A stretch of DNA of 64,000 nucleotides, from sequence record OR995200.1. One strand, 5' to 3'. Origin of the DNA: Escherichia phage JY01. Shown in pieces: positions 27,005-53,816 of this stretch. Below the pieces are notes generated by a model. The model saw only the letters and a program-made list of their open reading frames with translations, was not told where the DNA came from and did no database searches. Both the position numbers and the translations under genes were made by a program. The stretch's first letter is position 1. Every line of letters begins with the position of its first letter.

Positions 27005-27646
27005 TTAACCTTTATTCATAAAAGCATTAAAAATTTGATCGTCAATAGAAACTTTTACTTTAGGCTGTTCTTCAAACGGTAATTCATATCCACATATTAC
27101 AATTTTGTGATCAATATCAAAATACACAGAAGAAATATGATTAATGATGTTTTCAGTAAAGTCTAAATCAACATCAATATCTTTTTGACCACAGCCCAAA
27201 GGATAAATAATGCGAGTAATTCGATTATCTTTAACAAATATTCCACCGACATACTCTGTGCTGCGTTTAAAGTTTACACGTTTCCTAAATGAAAAATATT
27301 CAGGCTCTCTATGAGCTCGGCTCATAGGACACAACGAGTAACTAGAATAAGAGATGTCAAATCCTACACCTTCAATATGAGCCAACGCGTCATGATTAAA
27401 CCAATTATAATCGTACGCCAAATCCATTATATTGTAATATGTGAAAGGCACCGGATTAACATCATGCGTTGTACCTTTAAAATCTGCCCAGGCAACGATT
27501 TCGTTATCTTTAACAATTACAAAAATTGTGCCAATAAGATATCCACGGTTATTTTCATCAGGCGTTATATTATAACATTGTGCACCAGGAAATTTACCGT
27601 ATTTAAACGGTGGATTTTTGTGCATATAATAAATCATATTATTCAC
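27005..27646 (-). CDS. Hypothetical protein (213 aa)
   Basis: C-terminus SIDDQIFNAFMNKG, shared with the downstream 118-aa gene. Confidence 0.5.
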   Translation of the reverse strand: MNNMIYYMHKNPPFKYGKFPGAQCYNITPDENNRGYLIGTIFVIVKDNEIVAWADFKGTTHDVNPVPFTYYNIMDLAYDYNWFNHDALAHIEGVGFDISYSSYSLCPMSRAHREPEYFSFRKRVNFKRSTEYVGGIFVKDNRITRIIYPLGCGQKDIDVDLDFTENIINHISSVYFDIDHKIVICGYELPFEEQPKVKVSIDDQIFNAFMNKG

Positions 27647-27932
27647 CTGTGATTTCGGTTACGATATCTTTGTTATTAAAGTTTTTATCGCAATACAAAA
27701 CATAATTATACTGCATTACACCACCAGACTTAAGCTGTTTTTGCACTTCAGCTTTCATTTCAGGACGATCGCGCTCAACAATATTCATAATATCCGCTTC
27801 AATTTGAGTTTCAACTTCAGTCTGATCCGCAGTCATAGACCATTCACACAAATCTTTATCATAACCTGCCATAGCAGGCTGAGCAGCACAAGAAGCTAAA
27901 GCAAAAATTGTAGCAAAAATAAATTTTTTCAT
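27639..27932 (-). CDS. sp: Spackle (periplasmic superinfection-exclusion protein)
   Basis: 97 aa with a cleavable signal peptide (MKKFIFATIFALASCAAQPAMA), in the 61-41 interval, matching T4 Sp in length and position. Confidence 0.7.
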   Translation of the reverse strand: MKKFIFATIFALASCAAQPAMAGYDKDLCEWSMTADQTEVETQIEADIMNIVERDRPEMKAEVQKQLKSGGVMQYNYVLYCDKNFNNKDIVTEITGE

Positions 27933-27992
27933 GATAATCTCCTCAGTAGTTTATGTTTATATAGTATCTCAATTTCCAACAAAAGTAAATAG

Positions 27993-28250
27993 TTATTTTA
28001 AAACTTCTGCATAATCACATGTTACAAACTGTTTCTCTAACTTAACGATCTTACGAAAATATCTTTTGCATTGACGAATCTGCCTCTTCGTAGGACGTAC
28101 AGCAAACTTAATAAATTCCACTCGACCAAATGGAGGGCTTTCTTCTGCTGGAATATCTAACACCAATTCCCACGTTTCTGCAATAAGTGCTTTGAATTGA
28201 GTATTTTTCCTGACGTTATACGGAGTAGGTTTAAATAAAACAATATGCAT
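27993..28250 (-). CDS. Hypothetical protein (85 aa, 61.4 position)
   Basis: Basic ORF adjacent to dmd. As I recall, T4 61.4 has been reported as a ToxN inhibitor (TifA); homology here is unverified. Confidence 0.45.
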   Translation of the reverse strand: MHIVLFKPTPYNVRKNTQFKALIAETWELVLDIPAEESPPFGRVEFIKFAVRPTKRQIRQCKRYFRKIVKLEKQFVTCDYAEVLK

Positions 28251-28251
28251 A

Positions 28252-28434
28252 TTATCCTCGGCAATCTACTTCACATACTTTCTTGTCATCAATGAAAGCT
28301 TTAACTAATGCTTTATTAACTTCAGCATATTGAGTAGTAGCCCATTGAACGTCATCTTTCATCATTGTGGTTTCTTTAGTAAACATGCTTTCATTCTTAA
28401 ACCACCCCATAAAAACTACCTTTACCAATTCCAT
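28252..28434 (-). CDS. dmd: Dmd, antitoxin against host RnlA/LsoA
   Basis: 60 aa, MELVKVVFMGWFKNESMFTKETTMMKDDVQW..., matches recalled T4 Dmd (gene 61.5) in length and position. Confidence 0.65.
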   Translation of the reverse strand: MELVKVVFMGWFKNESMFTKETTMMKDDVQWATTQYAEVNKALVKAFIDDKKVCEVDCRG

Positions 28435-49549: not shown

Positions 49550-50020
49550 TTAATCATGTTTCCACACCCCATCGGTATTTGACCAAAGTCGCTGATTGTC
49601 TGATCCTCGCCACAGCTTTTTGGTCGGAAGATTTTTCTCATACTTCCCATCAATAATAACATCAACATATTTAAGCATTTCTAGTTGTTTAATATCTTCA
49701 AACTTATATCCTGTCCACAACCAAATGCTTTTATTGGGATAAAGATTTTTTACTGTTTGAACGATGCAATGAATAACATCTCGGTTATCAGGATAGAGAG
49801 GGTCACCTCCGGTTATAGTCAATCCTTCTATATAATCATTATTCAAACATTCAATCAATTGTTCTAGTGTTTCACCAGTGAATGGAATACCATTTCTAGC
49901 ATTCCATGTTGATTTATTATAACACCCTTCGCATTTATGCAAACAACCTGTGACGAAAAGAACGACCCTGCATCCAGGGCCATTCACAAAATCACAGGGA
50001 TAAAATCTATCATAATTCAT
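49550..50020 (-). CDS. nrdG: Anaerobic ribonucleotide reductase activating protein (radical SAM)
   Basis: 156 aa as in T4 NrdG. Cys cluster GCLHKCEGC. Confidence 0.85.
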   Translation of the reverse strand: MNYDRFYPCDFVNGPGCRVVLFVTGCLHKCEGCYNKSTWNARNGIPFTGETLEQLIECLNNDYIEGLTITGGDPLYPDNRDVIHCIVQTVKNLYPNKSIWLWTGYKFEDIKQLEMLKYVDVIIDGKYEKNLPTKKLWRGSDNQRLWSNTDGVWKHD

Positions 50021-51834
50021 TGGTGTTTAACCCTATGCATGATTTCTTTATTTTTACCGAGATTAAATCCGCGTTCGTTCGGATTTCCCAAATAACCACA
50101 TGTTCTTCTTATGGTATTCATCTTTTTAGGATCAGTTTCTCCGCAAATAGAACAAACAAATCCGTTTTCAGTAGGAGTCATTTCATGGGTACTTCCACAT
50201 GTAAAACATTTATCTACTGGCATATTAACACCAAAATAATCTAAATGTTGTGCGGCATAATCCCATACAGCCTCAAGACCTTTTAAGTTATTTTTCATAT
50301 CAGGAAGTTCAACATAAGAAATGTGACCACCTGTCGCAATGAAATGATATGGCGCTTCACGAGAAATCTTTTCAAACGGAGTAACATTTTCTTCTACTGA
50401 AACGTGGAAACTGTTAGTGTACCAGCCTTTATCAGTAACATCCTTTACACTTCCATATTTTTCTGTATCAAGTTTACAGAAGCGATAGCAAAGGTTTTCA
50501 GCAGGAGTAGAATACAAGCTAAAAGCAAATCCAGTTCTTTCAGTCCACTGTTTAAGATGAGCATTCATTTTAGTTAAAATTTCTTGCCCAATATCACGAC
50601 CGACAAGAATATTCAATTCGTGAATACCAATGTATCCTAAAGACACTGAACTTCTACCGTTTTTAAATAACTCAATTATGTCGTCATCAGGTTTAAGACG
50701 AACCCCGAATGCACCTTCTTGGTAAAGAATAGGAGCAACAGTCGCTTTAACTCCTTTTAAGGAACTAATTCTACACATCAAAGCTTCAAAACATAAATCC
50801 ATTCGCTCATTGAACAATTCAGTAAATTTCTGTTCATTGAACTGTGTTCCAATATAAGAATCTAACGCAATACGAGGAAGATTCAGTGTTACAACACCAA
50901 GATTATTACGTCCATCAAGAATTTCATTGCCAGTCGAATCTTTCCATACGCTCAAGAAACTACGGCATCCCATCGGGGAAACAGGAACAGATGAACCAGT
51001 GATAGCTTTATTGTTCTTAGCTGAAATAATATCAGGATACATCCTTTTGCTTGCACACTCTAAAGCAAGCTGCTTAATATCATAGTTCGGATCGTCTTTA
51101 TAAAGATTAACACCTTCTTCAACAAACATAACAAGCTTAGGGAAAATAGGAGTTATCCCATCACGACCAAGACCTTTAATACGATTTTTCAAAATTGCTT
51201 TCTGAATCATTCGTTCAGTCCAGTCAGTTCCTGTACCAAATGTAATTGTTACAAAAGGAGTCTGTCCGTTTGAACTAAAGAGAGTATTTACTTCATATTC
51301 ATAAGCTTGGAATGCATCGTATACGTCTTTTTCTGTTTTAGATTGGGCATAATTCAGTGCATCGGCGATTTGCCATTTTTCTGCGTCTTCGATATGTTTT
51401 GCATAGGTGCGTTTAACATAAGGAGAAAGTACTTTATCTACATTAGCAAAAGTCGTTCCGCCATATTGATGGGAAGCAACTTGCGCAGTAATTTGTGCCA
51501 TAATTGCAGTAGCAACACCGATTGATTTAGGAGTTTCAATCTGCGCATTACCAAGCTTAAATCCGTTCTCAAGCATTCCTTTTAAATCTACTAAACAACA
51601 ATTAGTAAATGGAAGAGCAGGGGAATAATCAATATCATGAAAATGAATAATTCCGCTTTCATGCGCTTTCATAATAAAAGACGGGACCATATTTTTGGCA
51701 ATGTGTTTAGACACAATACCAGCCATAAGGTCCCGTTGAGTTGGAAAAACACGAGAATCTTTATTAGCATTCTCGTTTAAAAGGTCTTTATTAGTTTTAT
51801 GAATCAATCCTTCAATTTCTTTTTCAATTGTCAT
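50017..51834 (-). CDS. nrdD: Anaerobic ribonucleotide reductase, intronless
   Basis: Continuous 605-aa ORF with C-terminal glycyl-radical motif RTCGYLG and a Cys-rich tail. Confidence 0.9.
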   Translation of the reverse strand: MTIEKEIEGLIHKTNKDLLNENANKDSRVFPTQRDLMAGIVSKHIAKNMVPSFIMKAHESGIIHFHDIDYSPALPFTNCCLVDLKGMLENGFKLGNAQIETPKSIGVATAIMAQITAQVASHQYGGTTFANVDKVLSPYVKRTYAKHIEDAEKWQIADALNYAQSKTEKDVYDAFQAYEYEVNTLFSSNGQTPFVTITFGTGTDWTERMIQKAILKNRIKGLGRDGITPIFPKLVMFVEEGVNLYKDDPNYDIKQLALECASKRMYPDIISAKNNKAITGSSVPVSPMGCRSFLSVWKDSTGNEILDGRNNLGVVTLNLPRIALDSYIGTQFNEQKFTELFNERMDLCFEALMCRISSLKGVKATVAPILYQEGAFGVRLKPDDDIIELFKNGRSSVSLGYIGIHELNILVGRDIGQEILTKMNAHLKQWTERTGFAFSLYSTPAENLCYRFCKLDTEKYGSVKDVTDKGWYTNSFHVSVEENVTPFEKISREAPYHFIATGGHISYVELPDMKNNLKGLEAVWDYAAQHLDYFGVNMPVDKCFTCGSTHEMTPTENGFVCSICGETDPKKMNTIRRTCGYLGNPNERGFNLGKNKEIMHRVKHQ

Positions 51835-52304
51835 TTTAAACTCTTTCTAAGCTGCTTCTTAAATGAAGCTATTAATTGTGTTTTAGTGTCAGATTCATTA
51901 TATTCAAATCCTCTTTGAAGCATCTCGGCCATCATTTCCTCTTTTCCTAAACGAGAAAATTCCTTTGATTTATCTCCAACAAAGTTAGGGTGAATATTAT
52001 TTTGGGTGTAATCGGATTTTAAATAAGTAAGTAAATTTTCTAACCATTCAAGATAATCAACACCTTGTCCCTTTAAGCCAGAACGATTAAATTTATGCTT
52101 CATTTGACCTTCTGCGGCATTGCATAGATTACAAAGCAATCCACGTACCTTTCCTGCTTTTGGTCCATTTAATTCATGGTCATGATCAAGATGATTAGCT
52201 TGAACATCAGGATTTAGTTCTCGTTGGCAAATTAAGCATTTACCGTTTTGTGCATTATAAAATTTTTGTTTTTCTTCTTTGTATAATTTGCCAGTCAATA
52301 ACAT
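51831..52304 (-). CDS. 49: Endonuclease VII (Holliday junction resolvase)
   Basis: 157 aa as in T4 gp49. Zinc-binding CLICQ...HLDHDH...CNLC. Confidence 0.85.
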   Translation of the reverse strand: MLLTGKLYKEEKQKFYNAQNGKCLICQRELNPDVQANHLDHDHELNGPKAGKVRGLLCNLCNAAEGQMKHKFNRSGLKGQGVDYLEWLENLLTYLKSDYTQNNIHPNFVGDKSKEFSRLGKEEMMAEMLQRGFEYNESDTKTQLIASFKKQLRKSLK

Positions 52305-52346
52305 AATAAAACCCTTACCTTAAATAGATAAGGGTATTTATTATTT

Positions 52347-52523
52347 TTAAGTATTGTAAAACATTCGATGCAATCGTTTATACTGTCGAATCATCTTTTT
52401 AGTAGGACGAGAATAGGTTCCTACGCAAGTGGTCATATGAGGGTCCGTAGAATGTCCTTTAATAAAAAGTTTCCAAACCTTACCGCCATTTAACTTTTCA
52501 GTATAAACCAATTCGGTTTTCAT
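52347..52523 (-). CDS. Small ORF (58 aa) that is a partial duplicate of the upstream gene's 3' end
   Basis: MKTELVYTEKLNGGKVWKLFIKGHSTDPHMTTCVGTYSRPTKKMIRQYKRLHRMFYNT. The last 14 aa and about 45 nt of DNA repeat the end of the 167-aa gene. Confidence 0.35.
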   Translation of the reverse strand: MKTELVYTEKLNGGKVWKLFIKGHSTDPHMTTCVGTYSRPTKKMIRQYKRLHRMFYNT

Positions 52524-52559
52524 TAAAATGTCCTGTCAGAAAAAGAATTTTGAGTTTTT

Positions 52560-53063
52560 TCAAGTATTGTAAAACATTTGATGCAATCGCTTATATTGCC
52601 GAATCTTTTGGTCAGAAAAAGAAATTTGAGTTTCAAGCCATTCAATGTACTCTGCGGCAGCTTGCATCAGGTTACCTTCATAGCCATCGTTATTTTCTTG
52701 CGCAGCTAATTTAGCTAATGCGTATGAAATACGTTCACCTTGAAAAGCGGCTTTAGGATTCTGAACATCTTGGCTAGTTCTCTCTACAACTTCTTCAATT
52801 TCGCCATTTTCAACGGATTCAGTATTCCACAAACACCAGTATGTAATTGGCTTATCATAGATGTTAATAATCTTTCCGTCGGAAAGTTCAATTTCAATAA
52901 TTCCAGTATCAGGTTCTATATCATCTTCGCATTCTTTTGCAAGTTCACGAACTTTAAAGACAGTACCTGCACTAAGTTCCGGCCAGTAATTACATAGCCC
53001 TGTATCAACACGATTAATTCTAAACCACTTATCTACTGTAATCATGTCCCATCTCCATATCAA
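52560..53063 (-). CDS. Hypothetical protein (167 aa)
   Basis: ORF upstream of gene 49, ending ...KIRQYKRLHQMFYNT. T4 pin lies near here but identity is not established. Confidence 0.45.
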   Translation of the reverse strand: MIWRWDMITVDKWFRINRVDTGLCNYWPELSAGTVFKVRELAKECEDDIEPDTGIIEIELSDGKIINIYDKPITYWCLWNTESVENGEIEEVVERTSQDVQNPKAAFQGERISYALAKLAAQENNDGYEGNLMQAAAEYIEWLETQISFSDQKIRQYKRLHQMFYNT

Positions 53064-53167
53064 TTAAGTCATTTATCGTTGGTTCATTATATACTGTTTC
53101 TTCATCAGTGTAAACCGGTTCTTCCGGCTCTGGCTCTACAGTTTCCCATCTAGCCGCCCACCAAGGT

Positions 53168-53377
53168 TTAACCCCGAAGCTTATTAAGTTCTTCATAATC
53201 AATCCAGGATTCTAATCCTGATGGCAGGTCACATTCAATTTCCCAAAGAAGTTCTTCAATTTTATGAAGACGATCTAATTCTTCAACAGGAATAGTAACC
53301 ATTGATGGAGCTCTTGCTGCACTAATATCGTATATCATATTTACCCCAGTTTGACCATGCAATCGCCGTATTTCCAC
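53168..53377 (-). CDS. Hypothetical protein
   Basis: 69-aa track ORF. An internal ATG (MIYDISAARAPS...) would remove the overlap with the upstream gene. Confidence 0.35.
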   Translation of the reverse strand: MEIRRLHGQTGVNMIYDISAARAPSMVTIPVEELDRLHKIEELLWEIECDLPSGLESWIDYEELNKLRG

Positions 53378-53556
53378 TTAGAAATAGACTTTTCACCATT
53401 AGAATAATAAACTTCGAGTTTAGCACGATTATTTTTAATTTGAATAACCTTGGCTGTCATCAAAGTTCCATACCCATAATAAACTGCAACTTCATCACCT
53501 ACATATACCGCGCTTCCGCGGTAATCATGAATATAGTCAGTTCCTTCGAGCATCAT
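53341..53556 (-). CDS. Hypothetical protein (71 aa)
   Basis: ORF directly downstream of nrdC. Confidence 0.4.
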   Translation of the reverse strand: MMLEGTDYIHDYRGSAVYVGDEVAVYYGYGTLMTAKVIQIKNNRAKLEVYYSNGEKSISKWKYGDCMVKLG

Positions 53557-53816
53557 TTAAAATATTCTCGCAGTTGGTCAAATCCACCAATATGACTTCC
53601 ATCAGGAGCAAATACCTGAGGCATTGTCAAGCCGATTTGAGTATCACGACCTAGTTTAGTCAGAAGCTCAGCGATTTTCTCATCATCAAAAACACCTTTT
53701 TCCGGCATAATGTTGATAAATTCAAACGGCTGTTTCTTCACAGTCAAAAGACGTTTTGCATTATCGCAATACACGCATTTATGAATGTTGCTATCATAAC
53801 CATATACTTTAAACAT
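53553..53816 (-). CDS. nrdC: Thioredoxin/glutaredoxin NrdC
   Basis: 87 aa, MFKVYGYDSNIHKCVYCDNAKRLL..., matches recalled T4 NrdC including the CVYC active site. Confidence 0.8.
   Translation of the reverse strand: MFKVYGYDSNIHKCVYCDNAKRLLTVKKQPFEFINIMPEKGVFDDEKIAELLTKLGRDTQIGLTMPQVFAPDGSHIGGFDQLREYFK

Follow-up and report, generated by a model that had tools for sequence, protein, structure and literature searches.

The PinA protein of bacteriophage T4 inhibits both the ATPase activity and the proteolysis of Lon, according to work cited in PMC8835725. TifA (gp61.4), another small T4 protein, inhibits the type III toxin ToxN (Srikant et al. 2022, PMC9391042). It binds RNA via a basic C-terminal helix capped by a Pro-Thr pair, and with the substitutions P53A/T54A or K55A/R56A/R59A the protein neither binds RNA nor neutralises ToxN (Guegler et al. 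2023, PMC10853763). In the AlphaFold model of TifA, a three-stranded sheet and the C-terminal helix are accompanied by a loop of about 20 residues which faces ToxN and is predicted to set the specificity; the TifA homologues tested experimentally include no pin-adjacent member (PMC10853763). The present analysis concerns a 64,000-nucleotide (nt) stretch of Escherichia phage JY01 (sequence record OR995200.1, hereafter the window). It is a Tequatrovirus (T4-like) genome in which pinA and a small gene of 58 codons downstream of it, named here ORF58 (open reading frame of 58 amino acids, aa), end in nearly the same sequence.

The repeats at this locus are interpreted as the footprint of two recombination events between the neighbouring early genes pinA and ORF58. 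The first fused the end of ORF58 to pinA, and the second would have returned a complete ORF58 downstream of the fused gene. ORF58 is a TifA-family paralogue, and the locus adds a case of gene fusion and mosaicism in the T-even hyperplastic region. Taken together, the two-event model with ORF58 as the source of the tail and with a TifA-like function is held with good, though not full, confidence. The elements involved are as follows.

52560-53045, minus strand: pinA, the whole gene (Lon protease inhibitor), 161 aa from the ATG at 53045
52608..53045, minus strand: pinA core, codons 1-146 (Pfam Inhibitor_I24; PF10465 4e-47, residues 4-141; phrog_2167, residues 1-146)
52611..52633, minus strand: repeat copy A, the pinA codons ETQISFSD just before the fusion point (96% to 52535-52557)
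52560..52607, minus strand: repeat copy B, pinA codons 147-161 and the TGA stop (42/48 to 52347-52394)
52555..52559, minus strand: junction J2, an A-run joining long pinA to the ORF58 cassette (ACTTGAAAAAACTCAAAATTC shared across phages)
52523..52557, minus strand: A' and relic, a non-coding fossil of a short-pinA 3' end reading ETQNSFSDRTF and stop (from the repeat and short-allele comparison)
52531..52534, minus strand: Shine-Dalgarno-like AGGA, 7 nt upstream of the ORF58 ATG and within the relic (sequence reading)
52347..52523, minus strand: ORF58, 58-aa DUF7279 (TifA-family) gene (PF23945 3e-17, phrog_3272 3e-34)
52347..52394, minus strand: repeat copy B', the native C-terminal helix of ORF58, codons 44-58 and the TAA stop (tail kept in homologues of five genera)

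The repeat search paired 52330-52392 with 52543-52605 (63 nt, 83% identity, spacing 213). The coding core of this pair, B' at 52347-52394 and B at 52560-52607, aligns without gaps at 42 of 48 bases, and no third site with at least 30/48 matches is found on either strand of the 64-kb window; shuffled 48-mers used as a control gave a mean of 27.6 and a maximum of 31 of 48. Both copies encode IRQYKRLH(R/Q)MFYNT and a stop, ending pinA and ORF58, respectively. An earlier note made from the letters alone (the original prediction) had reported such a repeat and a shared C-terminus; on careful alignment the repeat lies essentially where it was placed, and translation confirms the shared residues. The larger gene, described in that note as 167 aa long, is present; it is pinA, with 161 aa from the ATG at 53045, and the figure of 167 counts from an upstream TTG.

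A second repeat had been overlooked. The 23 nt preceding the tail inside pinA (A, 52611-52633) recur immediately after the pinA stop codon (A', 52535-52557) with 22/23 identical bases (96%) and a spacing of 76. On the gene strand, the layout reads pinA with A, B and its stop, then A', 12 nt, the ORF58 body, B' with its stop, and the gene 49 leader. The repeats are confined to the 48-nt and 23-nt pieces, the 137-nt body of ORF58 being single-copy. In the frame of pinA, A' and the following 12 nt give ETQNSFSDRTF and a stop, whose TAA shares bases with the ORF58 start (TAATG), as it does in the phages with a short pinA; in IME340, PEC04, EcNP1 and UFV05 this sequence forms the live end of a 148-aa pinA.

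Copy B' contains a short inverted repeat, ATTCGA...TCGAAT (52352-52392, minus), which forms a small hairpin in the predicted RNA fold; at the same positions copy B is mutated to ATTCGG...TCAAAT. RNA fold prediction gave no notable structure at the pinA-ORF58 junction (z = +1.27), and, apart from the hairpin of gene 49 that comes after B', no promoter-like or terminator-like site was found in 52340-52640. TG-A-AAA-AAC (52554-52562, minus) contains the heptamer A AAA AAC, in the zero frame a classic -1 slippery pattern; it was considered as a frameshift site and rejected, as it starts inside the pinA stop codon; this run is probably merely the recombination joint.

Four arrangements of the locus occur within Tequatrovirus. 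In type 1 (T4, e11/2, wV7), the long pinA of 161 aa is followed 41 base pairs further on by gene 49, and ORF58 is absent. Type 2 (IME340, PEC04, EcNP1, UFV05, GRNsp7) has a short pinA of 148 aa, the TAATG overlap, ORF58 and the gene 49 leader. Type 3, to which the window belongs together with JB75, G9062 and SG1, has the long pinA, the A' relic and ORF58. The fourth type (teqsoen) combines a short pinA with a clean deletion of ORF58 at an AAT microhomology. Junction-specific BLAST in the phage collection found the type 3 junction in 113 phage records and the long-pinA fusion junction in 365, which gives about 252 records of type 1; ORF58 at Tequatrovirus-level identity was present in 187, which gives about 74 of type 2. 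As to whether relatives have one or two copies of the tail, a question raised at the outset, types 1 and 2 have one and type 3 (113 records) has two. Scanning IMG/VR for the gene 49 start returned 2 loci only, too few for a population survey.

Junction J2, ACTTGAAAAAACTCAAAATTC, is identical in the window, JB75, G9062 and SG1. SG1 carries this type 3 junction, yet the 3' half of its ORF58 is type-2-like, and this mosaic indicates that J2 arose once and that its flanks were shuffled later by homologous recombination. The window ORF58 body is about 10% diverged from the sampled type 2 copies (synonymous divergence, dS, 0.23-0.27). The flanking genes gave no parental lineage, since gene 49 is too uniform (97-99% identical everywhere) and the pinA core too mosaic.

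The direction of transfer emerges from the comparison of the alleles. The pinA core has 94% nt identity to T4 pin, and the gene is annotated as pin in T4 and its relatives. The window PinA matches PF10465 with 159.9 bits (cutoff 27) over residues 4-141, the last 15-20 residues lying beyond the model; residues 147-161 match positions 44-58 of phrog_3272 and not the PinA family models. The short PinA of type 2 (148 aa) ends in ETQISFSDRAF and lacks the IRQYKRLH tail. PinA proteins of other genera and of type 2 end in SD(R/E)(A/V)F or LERRLS, likewise without the tail. The T4-type PinA (161 aa) equals residues 1-146 of the short PinA plus residues 44-58 of ORF58. In nucleotides, the T4 junction, TCTGACCGA joined to ATGATTCAGCAA, is the type 2 sequence minus 137 nt, from GCGTTTTA through ORF58 codon 43. 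At the joint itself, GACCGA/ATGATT, the left side is that of short pinA and the right side is ORF58 from codon 44 onward. Because 137 = 3n+2, the deletion brings the ORF58 frame, shifted by -1, into the frame of pinA. The other long-allele junctions, CAAATG and CAAAAG, have the same length as that of T4 and differ by point substitutions only, which supports a single fusion event. By this comparison of alleles, the tail is native to ORF58, and it was pinA that gained the 15 codons in common.

The captured piece begins at ORF58 M44, i.e., after the PT-KK cap, and corresponds to the distal part of the helix. The T4 PinA tail has Q in place of the R46 equivalent. Tail changes in long pinA number five non-synonymous and one synonymous, as against two and three in the ORF58 context, which suggests that the PinA tail is drifting under relaxed constraint. 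PinA is acidic (isoelectric point, pI, 4.5) and its tail is basic. In the AlphaFold2 (AF2) model of PinA, the tail is a low-confidence extension of the C-terminal helix 122-159; a sequence search of the PDB with PinA found no structure.

ORF58 belongs to an established gene family. It matches Pfam DUF7279 (PF23945) over residues 7-56 (62.7 bits, cutoff 24.5, E = 3e-17) and phrog_3272 over its full length (3e-34), and has no similarity to the PinA core. Its homologues are 54-61 aa long, and all contain RPTKKMIRQ(Y/F)KR(L/F)HRxFYN. Gene 49 follows them immediately in Dhakavirus (CLB_P2, IME540), Gaprivervirus (VR26) and Mosigvirus (RB69 ORF087c, Shf125875). In Gelderlandvirus S16 the homologue comes after a 49.1-type gene, and gene 49 is not adjacent within the stretch read. 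The C-terminal tail is kept in the ORF58 homologues of five Tevenvirinae genera including Tequatrovirus, and in IME540, Shf125875 and S16 the homologue is present while pinA is absent. For ORF58, the ratio of non-synonymous to synonymous divergence (dN/dS) is 0.1-0.2; pairwise values between genera span 0.05-0.28 at dS of up to about 2, and the tail shares this constraint. The intact 58-aa ORF occurs in 110 phage records at at least 99% identity. Judged from these comparisons, ORF58 is a real gene under purifying selection. An exhaustive profile search with the family returned 9 proteins only; the long matches P0014 and P0017-19, considered as relatives, were set aside as repetitive or low-complexity noise on the evidence of Pfam. 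As far as these searches extend, the family is tiny outside its known members and confined to T4-like phages. Among the papers searched, none mentions DUF7279 or ORF087c.

On the opposite strand, a 41-aa ORF antisense to ORF58 (52368-52493, plus) is open in several Tequatrovirus and Gaprivervirus genomes. It was rejected as a gene: its dN/dS of about 0.6-1.7 shows no protein-level constraint, and in CLB_P2 a stop interrupts it. The frame probably results from nothing more than the sense-strand codon content.

The profile built from ORF58 homologues has one further match in the window:

27993..28250, minus strand: tifA (T4 gene 61.4), a distant paralogue between dmd and sp (PF23945 2.8e-20, phrog_2375 5e-38)

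This gene is identified as 61.4/tifA by the gene order 41-dmd-61.4-sp, by its length and by its sequence, which is near-identical to TifA-T4 (PMC10853763 Table S2); it matches PF23945 with 72.4 bits. In the interval 27639-28434 (minus), downstream of gene 41, dmd occupies 28252-28434, tifA 27993-28250 and sp 27639-27932. The window thus holds two DUF7279 genes, each beside a counter-defence gene: dmd with tifA, and pinA with ORF58.

ORF58 and TifA share RPTK(K/R)xIRQxKR; their overall identity is about 26% and is concentrated in the helix. Residues R39-P40-T41-K42-K43-M44-I45-R46-Q47-Y48-K49-R50 of ORF58 align with R52-P53-T54-K55-R56-Q57-I58-R59 of TifA, and the positions of the PT cap and the basic residues are invariant or nearly so in the 11 sequences aligned. 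The best AF2 model of ORF58 has strands at 2-9, 15-22 and 31-37 and a helix at 42-56, with a mean predicted local distance difference test score (pLDDT) of 81.7. The protein is strongly basic (pI 10.2). Where TifA homologues have 15-25 extra residues, ORF58-type proteins have gaps, and the model shows short turns only. PDB sequence searches with ORF58 and TifA gave no match. ORF58 thus probably folds like TifA, with a three-stranded sheet and a Pro-Thr-capped basic helix, as the model predicts. It is probably a minimal TifA-like RNA-binding counter-defence protein, as inferred from the alignment and the model; its translation would start from an AGGA site of its own. As the specificity loop of about 20 residues is missing, it probably has a target other than the ToxN recognised by TifA.

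It has also been considered that PinA and ORF58 form a two-part anti-toxin-antitoxin module. PinA would stop Lon-dependent turnover of an antitoxin, and ORF58 would neutralise the RNase toxin on RNA; capture of the helix by the acidic PinA would then be adaptive, for example as an RNA or ribosome tether or in tuning Lon binding. This extension is speculative and rather unlikely. If true, it would explain the independent fusions in Tequatrovirus and Mosigvirus, the DUF7279-PinA read-through described below and the position of the fused form as the majority allele, and it would mean that the published biochemistry of T4 PinA was carried out on a chimera.

Parallel independent events in Mosigvirus mark the pinA/ORF58 locus as a recombination hotspot, as read from the arrangements found there. 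In RB69, two DUF7279 copies flank pinA, and the upstream one is frameshifted. A second fusion of pinA with a tail, at an ACGTTT microhomology, is present in vB_EcoM-ZQ3, two other isolates and one metagenome contig (L023, P0047). In this fusion, pinA runs on into the nine final codons of the downstream DUF7279 copy, and the product ends in LERR/FHRDFYNVY. In Shf125875, a crossover within ACTTTTATA of the two DUF7279 tails has eliminated pinA. Two metagenome contigs (L021 2834-3409 and L022 1510-2085; P0046) encode a 191-aa read-through fusion of the upstream DUF7279 protein to the N-terminus of a PinA of Mosigvirus type; in both, a one-base deletion removes the stop, and the downstream DUF7279 copy is deleted.

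Some further variants of the locus were recorded. RB69ORF089c (38 aa; L007 607-776) is the 3' remnant of the upstream DUF7279 copy, with an extra A in an A-run; the upstream copy is intact in L023 and Shf125875. The 'pinA' of Dhakavirus and Gaprivervirus (L003 1322-1495; L004 1322-1764) has 57 aa and corresponds to the C-terminal helical part, Pfam positions 88-136. In VR26, an extra 89-aa ORF (phrog_17711) lies between the 57-aa 'pinA' and the ORF58 homologue.

The most economical reading of the alleles leads from type 2 to type 1 by deletion and from type 1 to type 3 by an illegitimate join. The ancestor, as the comparison shows, had a short pinA coupled translationally to ORF58 via TAATG, followed by the gene 49 leader. 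In the first event, visible in the alleles themselves, an in-frame deletion of 137 nt removed the last two codons and the stop of pinA together with ORF58 codons 1-43. Codon 146 of pinA was thereby joined to codon 44 of ORF58, producing the 161-aa long PinA of T4 and eliminating ORF58. The second event, with its anatomy visible in the window and its route conjectural, would be a non-homologous join in the A-run after the long-pinA stop, placing a complete ORF58 cassette downstream that still bears the last 35 nt of short pinA. This could have happened by unequal crossover or illegitimate joining of a type 1 with a divergent type 2 genome. It could also have happened, by analogy with the PeSL mini-circles (PMC2839356), through a circularised A'-X-B' cassette integrating via the shared tail. 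Either route would leave the direct repeats B/B' (48 nt) and A/A' (23 nt). Since the A' relic comprises the last eleven codons, the stop and the TAATG of a short pinA, now non-coding, it shows the ORF58 cassette to have come from a type 2 genome; because the relic was carried along, ORF58 retains the AGGA ribosome-binding site (52531-52534).

The last step may also be read in reverse, with the window-type as the intermediate. A template switch or duplication in a short-pinA phage would have put A-B upstream of A'-ORF58-B', after which deletion between B and B' would yield the T4-type and deletion between A and A' would regenerate the short type. Both deletions would be simple homologous events between direct repeats that are actually observed, and the locus demonstrably drops segments by repeat-mediated crossover, as in Shf125875. 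In addition, G9062 and several long pinA alleles have the A' variant ETQNSFSD in A, which suggests exchange between A and A'. However, every type 1 tail sampled is of pure B sequence as far as the TGA stop, with no B/B' hybrid among them, and copy B of long pinA shows 1-2 nt differences to the common type 2 tail, as against 5-6 to the B' of the window itself. The T4 junction is the exact product of one deletion in a short-type genome, and the window-type ORF58 module is nearly clonal (87/115 copies at least 99% identical), while T4-type and short-type alleles are more diverse. The reverse order is thus given only a small probability.

The original prediction had the 3' end of pinA duplicated downstream, creating the 58-aa ORF as a young chimera or as a decoy or truncated pinA paralogue. 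The tails are indeed about 88% identical in DNA, and the small ORF does come right after the larger one. The direction is nevertheless reversed, as PinA took its tail from an ORF58-type gene: short alleles and other genera have PinA without the tail, and ORF58 is unlike the PinA core. Nor is ORF58 a decoy or a truncated copy, being a complete DUF7279 member kept under purifying selection in five genera, pinA-less phages among them. The duplication is accordingly regarded as very improbable. Calling the repeat a recombination scar was correct in view of its anatomy; very recent, however, it is not, since most Tequatrovirus genomes, that of T4 among them, have the fused pinA. Just as slight a chance is given to a cis-acting need, under which a gene of any kind that ends just ahead of the late promoter and hairpin of gene 49 would keep this sequence for gene 49 regulation. 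The AATAAATA box and the hairpin do adjoin the tail in every case in T4 and the short-allele phages, but in the window copy B is intact although A', not the gene 49 leader, comes next. RPTKKxIRQxKR recurs as a protein motif in TifA, whose locus is unrelated, the allele differences in B' are synonymous, and the 3' half of the tail in copy B folds into nothing special. An assembly or sequencing artefact, with a collapsed or mis-joined repeat, is practically inconceivable. Nothing specific speaks for it beyond the general fact that repeats can mislead assemblers, and the same junction is found in 113 independent records from many laboratories and hosts, with ORF58 intact in 110 (at least 99% identity).

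Several points weigh against the two-event history and the TifA-like role of ORF58. After a simple exchange at the shared CTTGAAA, J2 would be three A residues shorter than it is. A handful of alleles and outgroups underlies the proposed order of events, and some T4-type alleles could have arisen secondarily from the window-type by B/B' recombination. The tail-drift counts (5:1 and 2:3) are not statistically significant. The AF2 models of ORF58 were built from 10 sequences, and only one of the five is confident, the others reaching 52-63. When the model was compared with the PDB by Foldseek, no match had E <= 0.001; the top matches include dsRNA-binding domains, but they are not significant and are given no weight. 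TifA homologues outside the T2/T4/T6/RB69 group neutralised no tested ToxN (PMC10853763), so that DUF7279 membership does not predict the target.

The region 51800-53100 shows 99.5% identity with Escherichia phages ECO07P4, a51 and others (n = 735 matching phage records). Every gene of the pinA-gene 49 region is on the minus strand, and the order of transcription is nrdC, three small ORFs, pinA, ORF58, the hairpin, gene 49 and nrdD. The neighbouring features are listed below.

53553-53816, minus strand: nrdC
52311..52342, minus strand: gene 49 leader, with a late-promoter-like AATAAATA box and a strong hairpin over the gene 49 ribosome-binding region (fold)
51831..52304, minus strand: gene 49, endonuclease VII (157-aa ORF; annotation the same in all relatives)

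The gene 49 leader folds at -25.5 kcal/mol (z = -3.76) and includes a terminator-like hairpin at 52335-52311. It adjoins B' in the window and B in T4, where it stands directly after pin. The hairpin at 52311-52342 is presumably the T4 gene 49 regulatory hairpin of Barth et al. 1988. The nrdC-pinA interval (53029-53556, minus) has ORFs of 57, 69 and 71 aa, its T4 counterpart being 49.1, 49.2 and 49.3, and its gene content varies among the close relatives examined. The nrdD gene (50017-51834, minus) is a single unbroken 605-aa ORF, i.e., an intron-less allele; in T4 a group I intron that codes for I-TevII interrupts nrdD, and in JB75 the gene is broken around one for a homing endonuclease.

On the whole, the locus is a case of ordinary phage mosaicism resolved to the nucleotide, and current understanding is not overturned by it. 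Among its closest relations is TifA. ORF58 and TifA both belong to DUF7279 and have a predicted three-stranded sheet with a C-terminal basic helix, in which a Pro-Thr cap is followed by K/R residues that TifA needs for RNA binding and ToxN neutralisation. Both are encoded by small early genes beside a counter-defence gene (tifA/dmd; ORF58/pinA). Unlike TifA proteins of 68-100 aa, ORF58 has 58 aa, lacks the loop of about 20 residues and the TifA C-terminal extension, and is located at the pinA/gene 49 locus rather than beside dmd. A loop-less 58-aa TifA paralogue carried by several hundred T-even genomes and absent from T4 is a candidate counter-defence factor with a different target.

The window pinA is orthologous to that of T4 (93-95% aa identity) and has the same 161-aa fused form as the T4 protein studied biochemically. 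What the comparison adds is that residues 147-161 of the reference protein are a captured TifA-family fragment, so that the reference Lon inhibitor is a chimera. A natural tail-less 148-aa form exists in about 74 records, with shorter forms in other genera, and such alleles allow the contribution of the C-terminus to be tested.

In PeSL shuffling and mini-circle formation (Arbiol et al. 2010, PMC2839356; PMC4122927), small non-essential ORFs of a hyperplastic region are likewise gained and lost via recombination at short direct repeats. By analogy, the repeat-bounded cassette of the window could excise as a small circle and re-integrate elsewhere. The window repeats differ in being coding sequence, with no sigma-70-like promoter or terminator in or beside them; lacking junction structure, promoter and terminator, they are not PeSL cassettes. 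The four arrangements (about 252, 113 and about 74 records, plus a few), interconvertible via short repeats, offer a model for the fusion, loss and re-acquisition of small genes.

The segmental amplification of dmd-tifA in evolved T4 (PMC9391042) also shows recombination at short homologies altering the copy number or context of a TifA-family gene. There, whole genes were amplified head-to-tail under toxIN selection. The window is not a tandem or segmental gene duplication of this kind and contains no head-to-tail copies of a whole unit; here only 48 + 23 nt are duplicated, as by-products of fusion and re-insertion which are fixed in natural lineages.

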